DNA from: Candidatus Atabeyarchaeum deiterrae
GTDB taxonomy: Archaea; Asgardarchaeota; Atabeyarchaeia; Atabeyarchaeales; Atabeyarchaeaceae
Direction: 5' to 3'
DNA length: 64,000 bases
Assembly (NCBI GenBank): GCA_037310415.1
Contig: CP147780.1
Span: 1,824,001-1,888,000 of the forward strand
Both the position numbers and the translations under genes were made by a program. The notes under the pieces were generated by a model. That model was not told the origin of the DNA. It made no database searches and worked only from the letters and a program-made list of their open reading frames with translations. Positions within the stretch are counted from its first letter, which is position 1; each line of letters begins with the position of its first letter. Of the stretch, positions 27,975 to 36,509 are shown in pieces.

Positions 27975-28203
27975 AGGCCTTTCACATTGGATACTACGTT
28001 TGGATATCCGTCGCAGTAAGGAAGGTTGCTTACTGCTGAACGTAAGCTAAGCATCTTTATTACAGATATAAGTTAAACTCCCTCCCGATGAGCAAATAGT
28101 AAGTGGCGCGGTTGCAGAACGTAGTAACAAATCTATTAGGCTTGAAGTCTGGAGGAATTAGACTCAAATACCCGAGAGTCCTAGAGTCTTTCGGTGGAGC
28201 CCT

Positions 28204-28234
28204 ATAAGCACAACTCTTCTATTTTTGTGCTTAT
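28204..28234. repeat. Perfect 10-bp inverted repeat ATAAGCACAA-N11-TTGTGCTTAT
   Basis: Read directly from the sequence; intergenic. Confidence 0.7.
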
Positions 28235-28400
28235 CTGAGGCACATGGACTTCAGTGCAGCTTGTGTATCGAGCGCTAGTTGAGTCTTACCGTTGATGTCA
28301 AGAAGACCATTGCGAAAAGGACTACGGCCTCGAAGCTCGCCAGACATGGGAAGCCCGGGGTAATTCGACATGTGGCTAAATAATCCTTAGAATCGGAGAC

Positions 28401-29015
28401 TCATGTTATTTGTTCGTCGAGTACTCCAACAAGGCAGGGGCAGCTACTGAGGACGCTGCAGAAGCCGTAGAGGTCAGACCTGCCGTCGAGCCTGCGGAGA
28501 CAACAAGAGCGCAAAGTAGGAACATCTTGTGAATTTGCAAAGGAAACACACATCAGGTTAGCTTTGCCAAATCTCTTTTCGTACTGTTCGAATACAGCAT
28601 CAACATAAGCATCCAGACTTTCTCGAAGCAATTCCTGCCAAACTGGGTGTTCCTTTACCTGCCGTTTTGTCAGCCAGTCGGTGTTTATTTCATTTCTGTC
28701 AAATGTTTTTCCTTTGAGTTGTTTGAATTGCTCTTCCGTGAGAATAAGAACACTGTTCCCAAGTTTTGTGTCAACCATGGGGCCAGTAAGGAGGTTTGAG
28801 ATTATTTTGATTTCGTTGTTGAAACAACCAACTGCGTCTGGTGTGTCAAAGTAGTTGAACCACCAGCCATTAATAAGTGTCTCATTTCCTGAGGTCAAGA
28901 CTTCCAGCCTCTTCTCTGCCACTTCTTTTGTTGTCATCAGCCTTCTTCTATCTGCCGTCGACGCCAAGACTCTAAGGGGCACAATTGAGTTGTCAAGGTT
29001 TGAATCAGCAGTCAT
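28401..29015 (-). pseudogene. Foreign-looking hypothetical gene, probably starting inside the acr3 3' end and interrupted by TAA
   Basis: Same frame as acr3, separated only by TAA(29037-39)+VAGGEIE. A GGAGGAG-preceded ATG (MSGKT) lies at about 29120. Confidence 0.5.
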
Positions 29016-29036
29016 TTCGATCTCGCCCCCAGCTAC

Positions 29037-30182
29037 TTACATACCTTGTTCGACGATTGGGTTTTTCGGTTTCAATGCTTCGTTGATCATTTTCTCTGCA
29101 ACTATTGTTTTGCCACTCATCTCTGGTCTCCTCCCCTTGGCGAACATCTTGGTCTTCAGCCACAGTGAAACGTAGACCAAGCCGATAAGCACAGGAACTT
29201 CGATTAGAGGTCCTATAACTGCCGCGAAAGCTTCTCCCGAGTTTATCCCAAACACTCCAATAGCCACGGCTATTGCAAGCTCAAAGTTGTTGCTCGCCGC
29301 CGTAAAGGAGAGCGTCGCTGTTTCAGGATAGCTGAATCTCAAACGCCAAGACAGGAGAAAAGAAGAGACAAACATTATCAGGAAATACAATGCCAGAGGC
29401 ACAGCCACTCTGAGAACATCAAAAGGCAAATTCAGTATATACTCACCTTTCACGGAGAACATTATGACTATTGTGAAGAGCAGACCGATGATGGCGGTGG
29501 GGCTCAGCCTCGGAATGAATTTCTCTTCATACCAAGCCTTCCCCTTTCGATGGATCAACGTGAACCTTGTGATTATTCCAGCGGCGAAAGGAACGCCAAG
29601 AAAGATCAATACGCTTTGCGCGATATCCCAAACCGAGATATTCACAACCATGCCCGCCGACCCACTTATCCAAGAAGAGAGCAAGGTAACAAAGAAGTAG
29701 GCGTAAATCGAGTAGAACACCATCTGGAAGATCGAATTGAGAGCAACCAATACAGCCGCATACTCACTGTCACCGCCTGCAAGCAGGTTCCATATCAAGA
29801 CCATAGCAATGCATCTAGCCAACCCAACTATTATGATCCCAACCCTGTAATCAGGCAAGTCGGGTAGAAAGAGCCAAGCCAGTGAAAACATGAGAAAGGG
29901 TCCAATCACCCAGTTGAGGAAGAGCGACACTCCAAACATCTTCTTAGCGCCCTTAATCTTCCCGAGCTCCTCATACTTCACCTTAGCAAGGGGAGGATAC
30001 ATCATCCATAGCAGTCCGATGGCAATGGGAAGCGAAACAGTTCCTATCTGGAGCATGTTAAAAATCGTCGCAATCTGTGGGAATGCCCACCCTGCTCCGA
30101 CGCCGATAGCCATCGCCAGGAAAATCCAGATCGGAAGTAACCTATCAAGCAGCGAGAGTCTCTTCAAGGATTTCTCGGGCAT
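29037..30182 (-). CDS. acr3: ACR3 family arsenite efflux transporter
   Basis: [43 protein letters not shown]. Confidence 0.97.
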
Positions 30183-30211
30183 GTTCCACGCCGCTATCTA
30201 AGTTTATATTT

Positions 30212-30235
30212 ACGTATTTAGATTCATTAATATGA
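30212..30235. promoter_or_regulatory. Putative ArsR operator upstream of acr3
   Basis: ACGTATT-N10-AATATGA, overlapping the palindrome GATTCAT-TAAT-ATGAATC. Confidence 0.65.
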
Positions 30236-30444
30236 ATCCACAAGAAGTGACATATATATCTTATTATGATCGGTTCAGAAGCGACAAGAGGTTAACATAG
30301 ATATTAGTTTGGAGTAATGTTCAGATGAGGTGCAGACCGTCACCGAAAGAAATAGGGGCAACGCGGCGCTAGCCGTTTCATAGATCTTTCTAGCTTCAAG
30401 GTGTCTCCATAGCTCAAGCGGCTGAGGTTACTTTCCGGCAAAAT

Positions 30445-30468
30445 ACATATTTGGTCTCGTTGATATGA
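30445..30468. promoter_or_regulatory. Putative ArsR operator upstream of arsR
   Basis: ACATATT-N10-GATATGA just before the start codon. Confidence 0.6.
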
Positions 30469-30475
30469 ACTAGCG

Positions 30476-30877
30476 GTGGATGAGAATATGTCGAAAAATC
30501 GTTCGGACCGAAGACTAGTTAGGCTGGTTGCTTCGCCCTATTGCCAGGGCAAGGATGCTTCTAAGTACGCGGGTGAGTTGAAGGAGTTGGCTGACAAGGT
30601 AGCGAACAGAGATTTGGCCATCAGAGAAAGCCGGCTCTTCAAGGCTCTGAGTGACGACAGCAGAATTAGAATATTGAAGTTATTAATGGTTCGCAGGATG
30701 TGTGTTTGCGAGATAATGGCTGCACTGGACATGACACAACCAACTGCGTCTCACCACCTGGTGCTGTTGGAGAAGGAGGGTTTGCTGGAAAGAAGGAAAG
30801 AAGGGAAGTGGGCTTACTATTCTCTTGCAAACCCGAAGATTGTTGAGGCCATAAAGAGGTTCATTATTGGGAGGTAA
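30476..30877 (+). CDS. arsR: ArsR/SmtB repressor with CVC As(III) site
   Basis: FKALSD..RIRIL, MCVCEI, QPTASHHL, GKWAYYSL. Confidence 0.93.
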   Translation: MDENMSKNRSDRRLVRLVASPYCQGKDASKYAGELKELADKVANRDLAIRESRLFKALSDDSRIRILKLLMVRRMCVCEIMAALDMTQPTASHHLVLLEKEGLLERRKEGKWAYYSLANPKIVEAIKRFIIGR

Positions 30878-30905
30878 CTCCTGACAAAGAGCTGGTGCTG
30901 GGTAG

Positions 30906-31622
30906 ATGAAGTACGCGATTTTCTCTGATGTTCACGGCAACCTTCCTGCCCTTGAGGCGGTTCTCCTTGACATTGAAGGGCAAGGCGTGAAAAAGATTCT
31001 CCACTGTGGGGATCTAGTTGGATACGGCCCCTTTCCAAATGAGGTGATAAGCCTCATAACGAGCAAGGGAATCGCAGGTGTGATGGGCAACTATGATGAA
31101 GGTGTCGGCTTCGAGAGAGATGACTGCGGGTGCGTCTATATAGACGAAACGCAGAGATTGCTCGGTCAGCGCTCCTTAGATTGGACGAAGGCCCACGTCC
31201 CAAGGAAGAATAAGGAATTCCTGAAGGCCTTGCCGCGCGAGTTGCGCTTCAGCCAAGCGGCATTCGAGATCCTTCTCACTCATGGTAGCCCCAGAAGGAT
31301 CAATGAGTACCTATATGAAGACAGACCAGCGAAAACCTTCAATCGCCTCCTGCAGGCGGGAAGATGCAATCTCCTCGTGTGTGGACATACGCATCTGCCC
31401 TACCACAAGGTGATAGACGACAAACATATCGTAAACGTTGGAAGTCTTGGAAAGCCCAAGGATGGTGACCCAAGAGCAACTTACGCTCTCTTGACTCCAG
31501 CTGCAGAGTTAAGCGTACGTTTTAGAAGAGTTCAATATGATGTGGAAAGAATGACGAGCGCCATCGAGGCTTCAGAGTTACCACACGAGTATGCAGAGAT
31601 GATAAGAAGAGGAACAGGGTAA
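30906..31622 (+). CDS. YfcE-like metallophosphoesterase
   Basis: SDVHGN, GDLVGYG, GNYD, HGSP, GHTH, NVGS; also a DDCGC insert. Confidence 0.92.
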   Translation: MKYAIFSDVHGNLPALEAVLLDIEGQGVKKILHCGDLVGYGPFPNEVISLITSKGIAGVMGNYDEGVGFERDDCGCVYIDETQRLLGQRSLDWTKAHVPRKNKEFLKALPRELRFSQAAFEILLTHGSPRRINEYLYEDRPAKTFNRLLQAGRCNLLVCGHTHLPYHKVIDDKHIVNVGSLGKPKDGDPRATYALLTPAAELSVRFRRVQYDVERMTSAIEASELPHEYAEMIRRGTG

Positions 31623-31830
31623 CATGCCATATTGGTTGTTTTCAGAACTTCTTAGGTTCGTACTTGACGCATCCGCTGGCCACCGCAATAAGGAAAACTA
31701 AGTATGACGTACAAATGGCGGGCGTAACCAAGGCAAAGACACCAAGGAGTGCTGCTTCTGCTTGACTCGAATAGATGACCTTCATATGTATAGCAGGTCC
31801 GACTCTATGGTTAATACGGCGAGAGGTGTG

Positions 31831-32271
31831 TTAACCCTTAATTGCTATCTCGGGCTCAATGACTACCTCAGGTCTTATTGATTCTGCCACCAGACTGAAT
31901 TTCCTCGCTAGCTGCATCGCCTGTTTGACCTTCTCTTCTGTCGACATTCTAACTACTATTCTTGGCTTCAAAATAATCTTCGTAAAGACGGATGTTCTAT
32001 CAAGTCTGTCCTGAACTGTTCCCTCCGCTTCACACTCATAAGACAGAAGTTCTATCTTCATCCTCTCTGCGACCCAAATAAACATCATGTGCACACACAT
32101 GTTCAGCGAAGCCACGAAACCGTCCTCGGGAGTCATCACCCCATGTTTGCCATGAAGGCTTGGAGGAGCGCTAAAACCCATTCGGGTGCCATTCCCACAC
32201 TCAAGGCTACCAGTATTCCCGCCCAACCAAGTCACCTTAGTTCTGTAAACTGGCAAGAGCCACCACACCAC
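31831..32271 (-). CDS. OsmC/Ohr family protein with a single canonical Cys
   Basis: FSAPP..HG..TPED.FVASLNMC. The second Cys position reads ARKFSLVAES (Ser). Start may be the TTG at 32256. Confidence 0.85.
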   Translation of the reverse strand: MVWWLLPVYRTKVTWLGGNTGSLECGNGTRMGFSAPPSLHGKHGVMTPEDGFVASLNMCVHMMFIWVAERMKIELLSYECEAEGTVQDRLDRTSVFTKIILKPRIVVRMSTEEKVKQAMQLARKFSLVAESIRPEVVIEPEIAIKG

Positions 32272-32333
32272 CCCTACATATTTGGCTTTAGAGTAAACAC
32301 GATGATCCCAGCGACGATGTCATATTGACATGT

Positions 32334-32789
32334 CTACTTACCCTGCTTGGATTGAACCTCACTGACCTTTTTCTTCATTAACTCAAAATAGGAGCTGTCA
32401 GAAAGCAAGTGCTTGAACTCTTTCTCTGTGTTACTCGCTTCAACTGTGACTATCCAGCCTTCGCCATACGGGTCGCTGTTCAAGAGCCCAGGCTCATCAA
32501 GAATCCTATCATTTCTTTCGACAACTTTGCCGGTGACGGGCATAGGAACTGAGATGATAATCTTAACAGTTTCAAACTGCGCCACCTCACCGCCTCTCTG
32601 AAAAGTTCTGCCCAAATCTGGCAATTGTGCAATTACCACGTCGCCACTCGTTTTCTGAAGGAAATCAGTTATCCCAATCCTCCACCTTCTCTCGCCCGCA
32701 CCGGCAAGCCAGACATCATCTTGAGAGTACTTGATGCCTTCAGCAACTTTGAAGATGAACTTGTCGATAGTAAATTCAAGAAACTCCAT
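32334..32789 (-). CDS. Glycine cleavage H-like lipoyl carrier protein
   Basis: RIGITDF.Q...GDV, FETVK (lipoyl-Lys), PVTGKVVERN, LNSDPYGEGW. Confidence 0.9.
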   Translation of the reverse strand: MEFLEFTIDKFIFKVAEGIKYSQDDVWLAGAGERRWRIGITDFLQKTSGDVVIAQLPDLGRTFQRGGEVAQFETVKIIISVPMPVTGKVVERNDRILDEPGLLNSDPYGEGWIVTVEASNTEKEFKHLLSDSSYFELMKKKVSEVQSKQGK

Positions 32790-33246
32790 GTTCCCACCCC
32801 TCCCTTCTCTCATTCACTTTGCGTTGAGCCTTCACGTAATCCTCGATGATGGCAGCGACCTTGGAAGCAATGGTGTTTGCTAACTCTGCACCCTTTGGCT
32901 CAAGTTCCCTTCGCGAATCTGTCTTGAGCTTGACGTGTTCTCTCTTCATGGAGTCAGTAACCACAACCGACGCTATGGGTCGACCCCCAACCTTCTCAAC
33001 ACTCCTTTTGGCGCAGAGCTTATCACAACCATCAATTGTGATCGTGGGCGACTTGGTTACAAAGCTTATCTCCTCCTCTCCTCCCGCCAAATAGAGTGGA
33101 ATACATATCGTCATAGTATCGTTGGGTTTGAGCTCTTCCAGGACTTTTCTCGCAGCCACTCTGGAGACCATTCCCTCGGGGATCTCTTCTCCGCTGCACG
33201 TGACTACGCCAACCTTTCTGCGCATCCAATCTCCATGCTCACTCAA
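32776..33246 (-). CDS. DGC-domain putative metal-binding protein
   Basis: TCSG, TICIP, ITIDGCDKLCAK; AGGAGG upstream. Confidence 0.88.
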   Translation of the reverse strand: MSEHGDWMRRKVGVVTCSGEEIPEGMVSRVAARKVLEELKPNDTMTICIPLYLAGGEEEISFVTKSPTITIDGCDKLCAKRSVEKVGGRPIASVVVTDSMKREHVKLKTDSRRELEPKGAELANTIASKVAAIIEDYVKAQRKVNERREGWEHGVS

Positions 33247-33265
33247 TCATGCGACCTCCTCAGAA

Positions 33266-33682
33266 CTAAATATCCTTGTTTGATAGCTTGTCGACCTCTA
33301 TACTCAACTGTTCAGCAATCTTTCGTGCAAGCGCCCTTCCGCCCGACCCAGGCTCCAACACCGAGACAGTTGAAGGCTTCAGGTCTTTGAACATCCGCAT
33401 GAACTCCGCCACAGTGAAGGCCTTGACTGTGGACGCACCAGCATTCTCAACAGAAACCTTCGCACACTTATTAGGGCAGCCGTCAATGGTTATGCATGGA
33501 TGCTTCCTAACGAGCGCGACAGCTTCTTTGTCCTTGAGCGCAACCATTGGCAAACAAGTCGTCGCTGTGCCTTCTCTCCTCATTTCATCTATTACGTGGT
33601 AGAGGGCCAGGCGGGTGATCGACCCTAGAACCTTACCGATGCCGCTACATGCTAAGACAACAACTTTGCCTTCCTCGCTCAA
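33266..33682 (-). CDS. DGC-domain putative metal-binding protein
   Basis: ACSG, TTCLP, ITIDGCPNKCAK. Confidence 0.88.
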   Translation of the reverse strand: MSEEGKVVVLACSGIGKVLGSITRLALYHVIDEMRREGTATTCLPMVALKDKEAVALVRKHPCITIDGCPNKCAKVSVENAGASTVKAFTVAEFMRMFKDLKPSTVSVLEPGSGGRALARKIAEQLSIEVDKLSNKDI

Positions 33683-33756
33683 ACTAGCTCAATCCCTCTT
33701 TTCACTTGCTCCGATGCATGCAAAGCACTCGGTTTACATTGGTTTTTCGTGTGTAA

Positions 33757-33825
33757 AAACATATTTATACATTTGAATATGTATCTTATGCGCGAAACAT
33801 ATTTATAAACTTGAATATGTATCTT
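33757..33825. promoter_or_regulatory. Two 31-bp direct repeats, each holding the palindrome ACATATT-N10-AATATGT (putative ArsR operators)
   Basis: 33757-33787 and 33795-33825 match at 29 of 31 positions and lie in a divergent promoter region. Confidence 0.8.
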
Positions 33826-33877
33826 CTGACTCATGGAACCGTAGACAACAACGGATGGATTTGGAGGGTTGCAGACC

Positions 33878-34147
33878 ATGAATAAGAAAGTCAAGGTCGA
33901 AGTGTTTGTTCCTACTGGTGCCTGCGCGTGTTCGTGGCAGAGCTTCATGGATAAAGTCTGGAGTGTTGTCCTGAAATTCAAGGACCAGGTTGACTTCCAA
34001 GTTAAACAAGCTTTCTCCGACGAAGCCTTGAAATATGGTCTGACATCAACCAAGGCCGTAGTCGTCAACGCGGACATCAAGATGACCGAGTACACGTTCG
34101 ACACACAAAAGCTCGAAGATGCCATCCGCAATGAAGTAGGAAAATAG
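33878..34147 (+). CDS. Small thioredoxin-like/ArsD-like Cys protein
   Basis: VEVFVPTGACAC, A.KYGL...AVVVN; GGAGG upstream. Confidence 0.65.
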   Translation: MNKKVKVEVFVPTGACACSWQSFMDKVWSVVLKFKDQVDFQVKQAFSDEALKYGLTSTKAVVVNADIKMTEYTFDTQKLEDAIRNEVGK

Positions 34148-34359
34148 AGCCCATGAGCTCACCGAAAAAAGAGGATGCCAGAGAACTAGACTCAAATGCC
34201 GTCGAGTCTTTGGGTCTTTCGGTATCAAATACTCTAATGCATTTGGGTTGAGTGCTAAGACTCCTCTAGAATATAGACCGCGAGCAAGTTCAAGGAATTC
34301 CTTAGCAAACCTTATCCTTCCATTTGCAAAGATTACTGTGGGTGGTATGCGAAGTGAAG

Positions 34360-34809
34360 GTGAATCGAGAGTTATTCGCTCCTTGTGGCTTGTATTGCGG
34401 TGCATGCGGTATCCGCTACGCAAATAAGCACAGCGATGAGAAGCTGAGAGGCAAGCTTGCCGAATTCTACGGCATGAAAGTTGACTCGCTCAAATGCGAC
34501 GGCTGCCTTTCGAACAACAGAATGGCGTTCTGTCAGTCCTGCAAAATAAGGGACTGCGTCAATGCAAGAAAGATATCAGGTTGCCATGTATGCTCCGAGT
34601 TTCCATGTGACAACATTAAGAACTTTCCCTTCAAGGTGGCCATACCGTACATGATGAGGGCCACTTCCTACAGAAAGGGGAAGACTGATGAACAATGGGT
34701 CAAATGGGAACAAGAGAACTGGAAATGCAAAGCATGCGGGACACCCATATTCAGAGGCGCAAGAAGATGTCCCAAATGCAAGAGTGAAATAACACCTGTG
34801 ACCGAATGA
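34360..34809 (+). CDS. DUF3795 Cys-rich protein with C-terminal Zn ribbon
   Basis: APCGLYCGAC, CDGC, CKIRDC, CHVCSEFPC, CKACG..CPKC. Confidence 0.88.
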   Translation: MNRELFAPCGLYCGACGIRYANKHSDEKLRGKLAEFYGMKVDSLKCDGCLSNNRMAFCQSCKIRDCVNARKISGCHVCSEFPCDNIKNFPFKVAIPYMMRATSYRKGKTDEQWVKWEQENWKCKACGTPIFRGARRCPKCKSEITPVTE

Positions 34810-34972
34810 AGCGAGAACCTCTTTTGCATCACCACTTGGTTTTTGCAGAACCTGGTGCTGAATTTGCAGAAAATCTGTACTCAGACTCATTTTGCTCTCC
34901 ACCCATATCAAATCTCGTGCAATAGGGAGAGCCTCTGTTCAAGCCGAATCGGCAAGCCCGGCAGGAAGCGTG

Positions 34973-35368
34973 CTACCAAGACACAAGATTTAGCATCCTC
35001 CCAATCTCTTGGAAATGTCTATCGTTAGATACCAGAAGCTCATCGTTGTACGCACAAATCCCTGCTATCAAGATGTCAAGCTCCCCGATGATCCTTCCCT
35101 TACTCGCGAGCTCACCATATATTGTTGCAGATGCCTCTGATGACTTTAGGCTTACTGGAAGTATCGGTATGCTCGAAAGTAGATCTTCAACTAGTTTGAG
35201 ATTCTCATTGCGCCTTGATGAAATAATCGCTCCCTTCAATAATTCATAGGCGGAAATGGCTGAAGTCGCAAGGTGCTCGCCCTCACCCTCAAGCTTCTCT
35301 ATCGATGAAACAGCTCTGGGCTCCCCTCTAAGCAGAGCAACCAGCAGATCGGTGTCAAGGCATACCAA
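34973..35368 (-). CDS. vapC: VapC PIN-domain toxin
   Basis: LDTD, SAYEL, LDILIAG, SNDRHF. Confidence 0.93.
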   Translation of the reverse strand: MVCLDTDLLVALLRGEPRAVSSIEKLEGEGEHLATSAISAYELLKGAIISSRRNENLKLVEDLLSSIPILPVSLKSSEASATIYGELASKGRIIGELDILIAGICAYNDELLVSNDRHFQEIGRMLNLVSW

Positions 35369-35593
35369 TCACAGCCTCACTTCCCTTGAAACGCTTTTCT
35401 CTCTCGTCTCCCCAATGAGCCTGAAAACCTTGTCCAAGTCATCTCCAGTCCACTTGCCAGCAAATGCTAGCAGGGGTTTCCTTTCCCCCTCTCTAGTTAG
35501 CCTTGCTATGACATCTGAGAAGGATTCTCCGTTCCGTTTCAGCTTCTTAAGGGCTTCATAAGCCTTCTGTGACAGCGAGATTATCTTAGTCAT
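35369..35593 (-). CDS. vapB: VapB-type antitoxin
   Basis: KIISLS..AYEALKKLK..GESFSDVI; abuts vapC. Confidence 0.9.
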   Translation of the reverse strand: MTKIISLSQKAYEALKKLKRNGESFSDVIARLTREGERKPLLAFAGKWTGDDLDKVFRLIGETREKSVSREVRL

Positions 35594-35594
35594 G

Positions 35595-35618
35595 ATATGT
35601 GCATATATATGTGCATAT
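35595..35618. promoter_or_regulatory. Tandem near-palindrome (ATATGTGCATAT)x2, likely vapBC autoregulatory operator
   Basis: Lies between a TATA-like element and the vapB ATG. Confidence 0.7.
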
Positions 35619-35666
35619 ATTTAAGTATTTGCTGTAAGGGGTTTAAAGTGACGGGCGGCGGACTCA

Positions 35667-35826
35667 TGACAACAAATAGACATTACGATGAGAAGCTGAA
35701 AGGGAAACTGTCTAAATCCCACCTGATGAAAATTGGCTCGTTGAAATGCGACGTTGCTTATCAAACAATAGGATCGCATTTTGCCAGTCATGCAGACCAA
35801 AGGACCGAGTCGCTGCAACAAATCTC
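35667..35826 (+). pseudogene. Frameshifted partial duplicate of the DUF3795 gene
   Basis: NRHYDEKLKGKLSKSHLMKIGSLKCD / CLSNNRIAFCQSC aligns to NKHSDEKLRGKLAEFYGMKVDSLKCDGCLSNNRMAFCQSC. Confidence 0.85.
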
Positions 35827-35840
35827 GATTCGTTTCCTTG

Positions 35841-36428
35841 TTACTTTTCAATATTCGAAACCTCATTGTGCCGAAAACAATCGACTATGTGGTCGTTCAC
35901 CATGCCCACCGCCTGCATAAAGGAATAGCAAATCGTGGAGCCCACGAATCTAAAACCTCGCTTTTGCAGGTCCTTGCTCATGGCATCAGATTCCTTGGTT
36001 TTCGTCGGTATTTCTGAACCTGATTTGAACTTGTTCTTGACTGGTTTCCCGCCAACGAATTGCCAGATATATTTGTCGAAAGAGCCGAATTCCTTCTTGA
36101 TTTCCAAGAGCTTCTGGGCGTTCGCGACTGCGGAATTCACCTTCAACCGATTCCGAACTATTCCTGGATCAGCGAGCAGGCGTTTCACATCTTCTTCGTT
36201 AAATTGAGCTACTTTCGCTGGGTCGAAGTTGATGAAGGCTTTGCGGTAGTTCTCCCTTTTCATCAGGATTGTATTCCAGTTCAATCCGGCTTGCGCGCCC
36301 TCCAGAACAAGTAGCTCGAAGAGCTTTCTGTCATCATGCACCAGCACGCCCCACTCTCTGTCATGATATTCTCTCTCCAATAGATTGCTGGTTGCCCAGC
36401 CACAACGCTTCCGAGCCTTTTCTCTCAT
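35841..36428 (-). CDS. tag: DNA-3-methyladenine glycosylase I
   Basis: RCGW, YHDREWG, LEGAQAGLNW, IVRNRLK, GFRFVG, MQAVGMVNDH..C. Confidence 0.96.
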   Translation of the reverse strand: MREKARKRCGWATSNLLEREYHDREWGVLVHDDRKLFELLVLEGAQAGLNWNTILMKRENYRKAFINFDPAKVAQFNEEDVKRLLADPGIVRNRLKVNSAVANAQKLLEIKKEFGSFDKYIWQFVGGKPVKNKFKSGSEIPTKTKESDAMSKDLQKRGFRFVGSTICYSFMQAVGMVNDHIVDCFRHNEVSNIEK

Positions 36429-36509
36429 GAAATCGCGACTCTCCGTTGCTGCAATTGGTATCACCACTTTGCCAAGAAGATGAATCCGTTCTGAAGAAGC
36501 CCTGCTTGG

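Follow-up and report, generated by a model that had tools for sequence, protein, structure and literature searches.

A candidate lipoyl-based module, with a pair of DGC-domain proteins, in the arsenic regulon of an Asgard archaeon

Trivalent arsenicals bind dihydrolipoyl groups very tightly, which is the reason why dimercaprol serves as an antidote. Why, then, should a lipoyl carrier protein be encoded among the genes of an arsenic regulon? The question is raised by a locus of Candidatus Atabeyarchaeum deiterrae (Atabeyarchaeia, Asgardarchaeota) that occupies positions 29,037 to 34,147 of the window, by which we mean the whole 64,000-nucleotide stretch analyzed here (assembly GCA_037310415.1, contig CP147780.1, positions 1,824,001 to 1,888,000). 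The window belongs to a complete chromosome of 2.76 Mb in an Asgard genome that is 97% complete, and the public sequences closest to its proteins carry the labels Atabeyarchaeia or Njordarchaeota, both Asgard archaea. Within the locus, the arsenite efflux gene acr3 and the repressor gene arsR adjoin genes for two DGC-domain proteins (DGC_A and DGC_B), a GcvH-like lipoyl carrier, an OsmC-like protein and, divergently oriented, a small thioredoxin-fold protein with a C-x-C motif (the CxC protein). A shared operator-like palindrome and a recurrent linkage to ars genes across bacteria and archaea lead us to the view that this set of genes is very probably part of the arsenic response.

A preliminary description of the window, made from the letters of the DNA, had named all of these genes, and each of them was recovered in place by open reading frame (ORF) calls and family searches. 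The acr3 product (29037..30182, minus strand) is a full-length match to the TIGR00832 equivalog of arsenite efflux permeases with 439.7 bits against a cut-off of 282.8, and also matches PF01758. ArsR (30476..30877, plus strand) belongs to the ArsR/SmtB repressors (PF01022, HTH_5, 1.8e-15; NF033788, 96.8 bits against 55) and carries a C-V-C metalloid site, found as MCVCEI in the translation. In the ArsR of E. coli R773 this site reads C-V-C-D-L-C with a third cysteine at +3; the extended motif of the present repressor, MCVCEIMAAL, has no cysteine at this position, for which one in the N-terminal extension might substitute. On the minus strand, the order of transcription is DGC_A (33266..33682; PF08859, 4e-14), DGC_B (32776..33246; PF08859, 1e-17), the GcvH-like carrier (32334..32813; PF01597, 1.9e-30) and the OsmC-like protein (31831..32271; PF02566, 2.2e-14). 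Only 19 nucleotides separate DGC_A from DGC_B, and the end of DGC_B overlaps the GcvH-like ORF, the likely start of which is at 32789, so that the four genes are taken as one operon. Divergent from DGC_A, the CxC gene (33878..34147, plus strand) encodes 89 amino acids from the ATG at 33878, in an ORF of 92 amino acids opening at 33869, with C-A-C at the place where thioredoxins have CxxC. The entire 5 kb block, consisting of the CxC gene, the DGC_A-DGC_B-GcvH-OsmC operon, arsR (with or without a phosphoesterase gene) and acr3, is kept in four related genomes, i.e., in the window and at three further loci (L021, L105, and L106). As the flanking genes differ among them, the block behaves as a unit.

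The four promoters of this block share one palindrome, CATAT-N12-ATATG, as had been proposed in the preliminary description. Three copies are exact: one lies 9 nucleotides upstream of the arsR ORF (30446..30467), and the divergent promoter region has the other two, one toward the DGC operon (33760..33781, containing the TATA-like sequence TTTATA) and one toward the thioredoxin-like gene (33798..33819). The fourth copy, before acr3 (30213..30234), reads CGTAT-N12-ATATG and thus has one mismatch. Shuffled sequences predict 0.03 exact copies in 64 kb compared with the three observed, and the 2.76 Mb genome as a whole has five, three of them at this locus. The other two, at C1:294347 and C1:2051165, of which one lies before a glycosyltransferase-like ORF (read from its translation) and one inside an ORF, were rejected as regulon members, being unrelated to the arsenic locus. 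If one mismatch is allowed, 67 palindromes are found genome-wide, fewer than the approximately 114 expected from base composition, showing that this is not a generally frequent motif. At the corresponding promoters of L021, L105, and L106, the half-sites recur around 12-nucleotide spacers of different sequence. In particular, L105 has an exact palindrome at the site equivalent to that before acr3, which is also kept in L021 and L106; the arsR half-sites are kept in L021 and L106 with a different spacer; the copy on the DGC side is conserved in L021; and the copy on the side of the thioredoxin-like gene is identical in L105 and L106 and conserved in L021. The two ArsM-like genes, which lie outside the window, have no copy nearby. 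As copies are missing from other genes of interest, the regulon is, on this evidence, the locus itself. We infer that ArsR binds the palindrome, and the TTTATA-like sequence within the divergent-region sites may be read as what would be expected of a repressor blocking an archaeal TATA box.

Is this arrangement peculiar to one archaeal lineage? Homologues of DGC_A at approximately 45 to 50% identity occur in many bacteria, where the block comprises a small CxC protein, GcvH, two DGC proteins, OsmC, Lpd, a radical S-adenosylmethionine (SAM) enzyme, an LplA-like ligase, and a Trx_3 protein, situated within clusters of ArsR, Acr3, ArsP, ArsM, and LMWPc genes. The gene order of the Asgard module differs from the bacterial one. 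NCBIfam searches of the bacterial loci identified, in each case above the family cut-off, a true Lpd (TIGR01350, 484.7 bits against 408.8), the radical SAM enzyme as LipA (TIGR00510, 373 against 310), and the methyltransferase as arsenite methyltransferase; the Trx_3 protein belongs to the MTH895/ArsE family. For a survey of linkage, a scan with one genome per species returned 80 loci, onto which the proteins of the window and those of one bacterial locus were mapped by tblastn, and the neighborhoods were screened for the gene families of the window and of one bacterial ars island. The loci span Chloroflexota, Thermodesulfobacteriota, Acidobacteriota, Aminicenantes, Verrucomicrobiota, Kiritimatiellota, Nitrospirota, Armatimonadota, Bacillota, Methanobacterium, Freyarchaeota, and Atabeyarchaeia. 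DGC_A is accompanied by DGC_B in 79 of them, by a GcvH-like gene in 77 and by OsmC in 68.

In the 48 loci for which 15 kb or more of sequence is available (long loci), genes were counted within 10 kb. The GcvH-like gene and DGC_B are present in all 48 and ArsR or Acr3 in 45, with Acr3 itself in 37, followed by the ArsE-family thioredoxin Trx_3 (42), OsmC (40), the LplA-like ligase (33), Lpd and LipA (28 each), ArsM (19), and LMWPc (18). A gene such as acr3 is normally found once or twice per genome of several Mb; the linkage between module and ars genes is therefore far beyond chance, and the outcome that the preliminary description had named as a refutation, homologous operons for the most part not linked to ars genes, did not come about. 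Among the neighboring ArsR genes, 57 of 74 from bacteria encode C-x-C-[D/E], and 17 of 18 from Asgard archaea encode C-x-C.

Within the Asgard archaea, a DGC_A profile matched 82 of 400 genomes of the phylum, distributed over 39 of 85 genera. In 20 other genomes from different genera, inspected over 8 to 19 kb around the match as the contigs allow, the GcvH-like gene and both DGC genes occur together at 19 loci, and an ArsR-family gene, Acr3, or ArsP is nearby at 18. Taken separately, an ArsR-family gene and a homologue of the CxC thioredoxin-like gene are each found at 14 of the 20 and Acr3 or ArsP within 8 kb at seven; OsmC is found at none. The Asgard and bacterial counts combined define a universal core of lipoyl carrier and DGC pair, usually accompanied by an ArsR-type regulator and a small thioredoxin-fold protein. 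Of the lipoyl-based module as originally conceived, with OsmC as a member, the carrier and the DGC pair are thus borne out; OsmC, absent from 8 of the 48 long and all 20 Asgard loci, does not belong to the core and is an accessory found in the bacterial versions and in the Atabeyarchaeia/Njordarchaeota lineage. At the Freyarchaeota-type loci L047 and L145, which have no ars marker, a GcvH-like gene occurs together with two DGC pairs and additional unpaired DGC genes. Their neighbors are TauE, a DsrE-like gene, two LplA-like genes, DUF5714, and radical SAM/B12 enzymes, and they may represent a sulfur-related use of the partnership between carrier and DGC proteins.

The carrier itself differs from an H protein of glycine cleavage. 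Its lipoyl lysine K84, present in 78 of 78 sequences, and E81 are invariant, its score against the GcvH equivalog TIGR00527 (100.2 bits) is under the cut-off of 115.85, and the GcvT and GcvP genes lie more than 1 Mb away. In a tree, the three other H paralogues of the genome fall on one side of a branch with a support of 97.9 in the Shimodaira-Hasegawa-like approximate likelihood ratio test, and all 75 GcvH proteins encoded next to DGC pairs, including that of the window, fall on the other. This split identifies the GcvH of the module as a specialized carrier and not as the glycine-cleavage H protein. With these paralogues (C1:572796, 797887, and 1911943), the genome has four H proteins, unusually many for an archaeon of 2.76 Mb, and a single GcvT and a single GcvP were found. 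In L106 (8894-9342), the GcvH-like gene was called as two pieces of 38 and 95 amino acids, for which a frameshift, decay, or an assembly error is possible. Genes related to lipoylation are present in the host, comprising LipS2 above its family cut-off, a second radical SAM gene beside it, three genes of the LplA/BPL family, and an Lpd-like gene. To judge from this gene content, the archaeon can make lipoyl proteins. The central proposal of the preliminary description, a lipoyl-based module in an arsenic regulon, holds up in view of an operator that is shared and conserved, of the linkage to ars genes, of the invariant lipoyl lysine, and of the bacterial Lpd, LipA, and ligase.

The second constant element of the module is the DGC pair. 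Both proteins score well above the PF08859 cut-off of 27 bits (64.5 and 53.0) and have four invariant cysteines each, namely C12, C43, C69, and C73 in DGC_A and C17, C48, C74, and C78 in DGC_B. A model of DGC_A (pLDDT 89.7) predicts a flavodoxin-like alpha/beta fold, in which the cysteines, judged from secondary structure, would lie at the C-terminal ends of strands. For the complex of DGC_A with DGC_B, an ipSAE of 0.83 was obtained compared with 0.00 for the best control; this mark is reached by 58 of 80 solved complexes and by 2 of 110 mismatched pairs. Between runs, the predicted contacts agree to at least 98%, with a partner pLDDT of at least 84. The modelled interface is formed by the cysteine-bearing loops, with C43 of DGC_A touching C17 and C78 of DGC_B, and we read the model as two pseudo-symmetric four-cysteine sites, to each of which one subunit would contribute three cysteines and the other one. 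Searches with the fold returned as best solved match the uncharacterized Wolinella protein 3pu6 (Z 9.2, root-mean-square deviation 2.6, 109 residues aligned), followed by generic alpha/beta domains. An ArsC of the low-molecular-weight protein tyrosine phosphatase (LMW-PTP) type was considered as a fold relative and rejected, since its Foldseek E values of 0.01 to 0.03 and a TM score of approximately 0.3 correspond to background. A profile search of the PDB sequences with the DGC proteins gave no match, and NCBIfam has no model for either of them or for the small bacterial CxC protein.

Regarding the origin of the pair, a recent transfer from Deltaproteobacteria was examined and discarded, because in a quick, unrooted tree built from 57 pairs the Asgard DGC pairs group in a clade (97) separate from the bacterial one (99); extended ORFs outside 100 to 200 amino acids were left out of this tree, removing many pairs from Chloroflexota and Acidobacteriota. 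A third, stand-alone DGC protein (L004, 4232-5168; 125 amino acids; PF08859, 2e-36) recurs together with ArsP, an ArsE-family thioredoxin, and an RnfB-type Fe-S protein in bacterial ars islands. A stand-alone DGC gene of "unknown function" is also part of the arsenic-induced ArsR5-ArsP-ArsE operon of Pseudodesulfovibrio mercurii ND132 (bioRxiv 10.1101/2022.10.17.512643). Apart from this gene, the literature search yielded nothing on lipoyl, GcvH, DGC, or OsmC modules of ars operons, in agreement with the initial assessment of the module as undescribed.

The two remaining proteins of the block are less constant. In the OsmC-like protein, C59 is invariant (69 of 69 sequences) and aligns with the peroxidatic cysteine on the first long helix; C80 is found in at least 90%, and K-Y/F-S replaces the resolving C-P-Y-S motif of Ohr/OsmC. 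E49 lies ten residues before C59, as in Ohr. The scores against TIGR03561 (18.1 bits, cut-off 88.85) and TIGR03563 (28, cut-off 166) stay under the family cut-offs, and the closest solved relative is the uncharacterized protein Ta0195 (2onf). The CxC protein, the homologues of which have 89 amino acids, is modelled (pLDDT 89.8) with a fold resembling thioredoxins at Foldseek TM scores of 0.6 to 0.7. It had at first been called Trx/ArsD-like, and the thioredoxin half of this name stands; the ArsD half does not, as there is neither a family match nor the Cys12-Cys13-Cys18 pattern. Pfam gave no family for the protein at E<=1 in its 89-residue form or at E<=0.01 for the 92-residue ORF, and no ArsD entry was among the top 50 Foldseek rows. 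Aligned with the bacterial CxC protein of 112 amino acids that precedes GcvH, it reached an hhalign probability of 7%, which does not establish homology, although the CxC motifs align. The families of the Tso and Sao selenoprotein operons described by Haft (PMC13188914), which we tried as possible relatives (TsoR, GcvH_rel_desulf, SaoT, TsoX, and OsmC_like_Se), were dismissed with all scores below cut-off, e.g., 38.5 against 150 for NF045810 and 23.9 against 65 for NF040730.

What the locus does not contain is equally part of the question. As initially reported, arsC, arsM, arsA, and gcvP/T are absent from the window; homologues of all except arsC exist elsewhere in the genome, with ArsM-like genes at C1:94093 and C1:1678768, an ArsA/Get3-like gene at 513379, GcvT at 626248, and GcvP at 277880. 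For the Grx-type ArsC family PF03960, no match was found anywhere in the 97% complete genome. Two LMWPc genes were assessed as ArsC of the Trx type and set aside, as they are far from the locus and have no cysteine at the positions of the second pair, and one of them has D-P-Y-G-Y. The Trx-type ArsC has an additional Cys82/Cys89 pair, and D-P-Y-G-Y is a motif of tyrosine phosphatases, which both LMWPc proteins resemble more than ArsC. Without a PF03960 match and with LMWPc proteins that have no second cysteine pair, this is an archaeon without a recognizable arsenate reductase.

How could a lipoyl carrier and two cysteine-rich proteins serve in such a system? Taking the evidence as a whole, the best explanation in our judgment, which we put forward tentatively, is an accessory module of the arsenic resistance system that is derepressed by As(III). 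In this scheme, ArsR with its C-V-C site would bind the CATAT-N12-ATATG operators overlapping the TATA-like elements of four promoters, those of acr3, arsR-phosphoesterase, DGC_A-DGC_B-GcvH-OsmC, and the CxC thioredoxin-like gene, and As(III) would release all of them together. The GcvH-like protein would be lipoylated by the LplA-like ligases of the host together with LipS1/LipS2 and reduced by its Lpd-like enzyme. Its dihydrolipoyl arm would then act as a deliberate high-affinity dithiol for As(III) or methyl-As(III), akin to a protein-borne dimercaprol, from which the DGC_A/DGC_B heterodimer and the CxC protein would strip the metalloid by thiol exchange for export by Acr3. Capture on the arm would at the same time shield the lipoyl and dithiol enzymes of the cell, and the OsmC-like protein with its one cysteine may be an accessory client of the arm, e.g., in sulfenate or peroxide repair. 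A lipoyl carrier induced by As(III) would, given the tight binding of As(III) to dihydrolipoyl groups, become arsenylated, which makes direct handling of As(III) the more economical reading. We hold this capture and handing over of the metalloid to be possible, on a footing much less secure than that of the place of the module in the arsenic response; that lipoate is an arsenic-handling cofactor, that the DGC proteins are As(III) transfer proteins, and that the module is a chaperone of Acr3 is slightly more doubtful again.

Several observations weigh against this interpretation. A dedicated Lpd, as encoded in 28 of the 48 long loci, is no less suited to continuous redox cycling than to stoichiometric capture. 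Four cysteines per site, in a heterodimer which is itself a model, suit zinc or an Fe-S cluster as well as As(III), and As(III) prefers three sulfur ligands. C-x-C sites of ArsR/SmtB proteins are also found in cadmium and lead sensors of the CadC type, so that the As(III) specificity of the present ArsR rests on its acr3 neighbor. Ars markers are missing from 2 of the 20 Asgard and 3 of the 48 long loci. Binding of As(III), lipoylation of the carrier, recognition of the palindrome by ArsR, and contact with Acr3 are all deduced. In addition, Pfam describes the DGC domain as probably zinc-binding, as quoted in a preprint (bioRxiv 10.1101/2022.10.17.512643).

The carrier might instead supply electrons, in a relay running from NAD(P)H via Lpd and lipoyl-GcvH to DGC_A/B and the small thioredoxin-fold proteins, and from there to clients in arsenic detoxification such as the reduction of arsenate or methylarsonate (as a stand-in for ArsC), the recycling of ArsM disulfides, or the reduction of the OsmC-like protein. 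That 28 to 33 of the 48 long loci contain genes for a true Lpd, for LipA, and for a ligase speaks for it, as do ArsM directly upstream of the module in many Thermodesulfobacteriota loci, the RnfB-type Fe-S proteins and Trx/DsbD pairs that are common neighbors, and a genome without recognizable ArsC of either type. Compact ArsR-GcvH-DGC-DGC-OsmC-Trx-Acr3 operons place the module at the usual position of arsC, and the C-x3-C of the DGC proteins at a helix start could be a redox pair. We nevertheless consider this relay rather unlikely: its inducer, As(III), should poison a dihydrolipoyl relay, the window locus and many others have no Lpd, and the fold searches with DGC showed no similarity to any reductase. 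Moreover, candidates for an LMWPc-type arsC lie beside the module in 18 of the 48 long loci, so that the module is not simply a replacement of ArsC and no general substitute for it. Improbable, to a clearly greater degree, is a relay of sulfur or thioarsenic in which, in sulfidic habitats, the lipoyl protein and its DGC partners would act on persulfide or thiolated arsenic species much as LbpA does together with sHdr, DsrE, and TusA in sulfur oxidation, the linkage to ars genes then reflecting thioarsenate chemistry. Such a role would suit the Freyarchaeota-type locus L047, with its DGC and GcvH genes beside TauE, DsrE-like, and LplA-like genes and no ars marker, and the origin of module carriers from anoxic, often sulfidic settings (judged from record titles); the ArsR/SmtB family includes sulfite and persulfide sensors, with BigR among the weak NCBIfam rows, and P. 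mercurii ND132 makes possible thioarsenicals (bioRxiv 10.1101/2022.10.17.512643). It fits poorly with ArsR or Acr3 in 45 of the 48 long loci, where sulfur-transfer genes are not general neighbors, with the C-x-C metalloid site of the regulators, and with a window in which there is no sHdr, TusA, or rhodanese gene.

The OsmC-like protein leads to yet another reading, a plain lipoyl-dependent peroxidase in which the GcvH-like protein, Lpd, and OsmC form a peroxide chain co-induced through the oxidative stress of arsenic, and the DGC proteins are structural zinc proteins. There is precedent in the L-protein/H-protein/OsmC chain and in a GcvH_1-OsmC pair of Hyphomicrobium, both cited in bioRxiv 10.64898/2026.10.01.755906; in our data, OsmC is found in 40 of the 48 long loci, Lpd directly follows OsmC in bacteria, and C59 sits at the peroxidatic position. 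This chain is nonetheless very improbable, as the GcvH and DGC pair persist in the 8 long and 20 other Asgard loci from which OsmC is missing, the linkage of GcvH to DGC being tighter than that to OsmC, and as the resolving-cysteine motif has given way to K-Y-S in a protein scoring far under the Ohr/OsmC cut-offs of NCBIfam. Lowest of all in our estimate stands a general buffer for soft metals (cadmium, zinc, mercury) or a thiol-stress module under an ArsR/SmtB sensor of something other than arsenic, for which the adjacency of acr3 would say little. The zinc-binding assignment of DGC by Pfam, the occurrence of C-x-C in CadC-type sensors, and the presence of Acr3 or ArsP within 8 kb at only 7 of the 20 Asgard loci are in its favor. 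The same operator, however, serves acr3 in this genome, and Acr3, ArsM, ArsP, and LMWPc are recurrent neighbors across phyla, on a map for which cadmium, zinc, and mercury transporters were not looked for. Capture of As(III) on the lipoyl arm and its transfer toward Acr3 thus remains the reading that we prefer.

How does such a module compare with known systems? Classical ars operons consist of arsR, acr3 or arsB, and arsC, with arsD, arsM, arsP, an ArsE-family thioredoxin, and arsT/arsX as accessory genes. The locus shares with them the C-V-C ArsR, the ACR3 pump, palindromic operators, and small thiol accessories; unlike them, it has no arsC, and neither the lipoyl carrier nor the DGC pair nor the OsmC-like protein is a named ars gene. 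By functional analogy, proteins with cysteine sites that pass As(III) to an exporter would resemble ArsD, which delivers As(III) to ArsA. In contrast to ArsD, however, the CxC protein has neither the family match nor the cysteine triad, and the pump here is Acr3, for which we know of no chaperone. In Mycobacterium tuberculosis, the lipoyl protein of the relay Lpd-SucB(lipoyl)-AhpD-AhpC carries electrons between Lpd and a cysteine adaptor; unlike there, the adaptor in an electron-relay reading of the present module would be the DGC heterodimer, unrelated to AhpD. That reading might also be likened to the arsT/arsX thioredoxin pairs of some ars operons.

Lipoyl carriers with other functions have been described in two settings. 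The hydrogenosomes of Trichomonas vaginalis detoxify peroxide by L-protein, H-protein, and OsmC (Nyvltova et al. 2016), and Ohr can be lipoyl-dependent (Cussiol et al. 2010), both as cited in bioRxiv 10.64898/2026.10.01.755906. Like these, the module has a GcvH-type carrier outside glycine cleavage together with an OsmC-family protein, and the Lpd of its bacterial version recharges the carrier. Unlike them, it has two DGC proteins, an OsmC without the resolving cysteine that is dispensable in many lineages, a putative ArsR operator, and a place in ars islands. In sHdr sulfur oxidation, the lipoate-binding proteins LbpA are served by an sLpl ligase of their own and by LipS1/LipS2 (PMC10332631). 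They are similar to the module in being GcvH paralogues with maturation enzymes of their own beside cysteine-rich partner proteins; they differ in that the partners here are DGC proteins and not sHdr, DsrE3, or TusA, in that the bacterial module has LipA and Lpd, and in the arsenic context. None of the nearest described systems contains DGC proteins, and neither lipoyl system is tied to arsenic.

The surroundings of the block complete its description. Starting 28 nucleotides behind arsR, a gene that the preliminary description did not name, for a metallophosphoesterase of the YfcE type (30906..31622, plus strand; PF12850, 6.7e-27; TIGR00040, 59.1 bits against a cut-off of 56.25) probably has the operator-controlled arsR promoter in common with it; it is found beside arsR in L021 and L105 as well and is absent from L106. 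Hydrolysis of arsenate esters is one guess at its role. The spacer between arsR and acr3 was considered as the site of a non-coding RNA. It is near-identical in the closest relative L021; L105 and L106, however, conserve only the operators and the TATA-like element, so that there is no case for an RNA in it. In addition, an Rfam search over 28000-36000 returned nothing meaningful, with two rows for eukaryotic long non-coding RNAs at E values of 0.4 to 0.9. Directly behind acr3, the window has an ORF of 204 amino acids (28401-29015, minus strand) without a Pfam or NCBIfam match. Beyond the CxC gene follow a cysteine-rich DUF3795 gene (34324-34809, plus strand) and, at 35597-35920 (plus strand), a degraded DUF3795-like fragment (approximately 35639-35841). 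Two DUF3795 paralogues (C1:95854-96572) also adjoin the ArsM-like gene at C1:94093-94794, and DUF3795 may be another arsenic-associated family. A pair of VapC (PIN) and its antitoxin VapB lies directly beside the arsenic block (34973-35593, minus strand), with a methyladenine glycosylase gene next (35841-36467); among the relatives, a nucleotidyltransferase/HepT pair is present in L105, and a Cas12f/TnpB-like gene lies at the edge of L106. VapBC and the other edge genes fit an island-like nature of the block.

Arsenic resistance is among the best-mapped detoxification systems, yet a module that is common in anaerobes has neither a name nor a curated family model for its DGC proteins. The presence of a lipoyl protein, the textbook victim of arsenite, inside an arsenic regulon suggests either a protein-bound dithiol that acts as chelator or chaperone, or a new chain of reductants. 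The parts of the module are small and soluble, so that the idea is directly testable in E. coli. If true, Acr3 would have its first metallochaperone pathway and the DGC domain its first assigned function, in a pathway common to Asgard archaea and at least six bacterial phyla, and the subfamily of OsmC proteins with one cysteine would also gain a first function. The module is probably an unstudied way for anaerobes to handle arsenic. Glutathione-free anaerobes, and archaea in which ArsC is missing, could owe to it their ability to live with arsenic in the sediments of wetlands and aquifers, where the mobility of arsenic is of consequence for water and rice.

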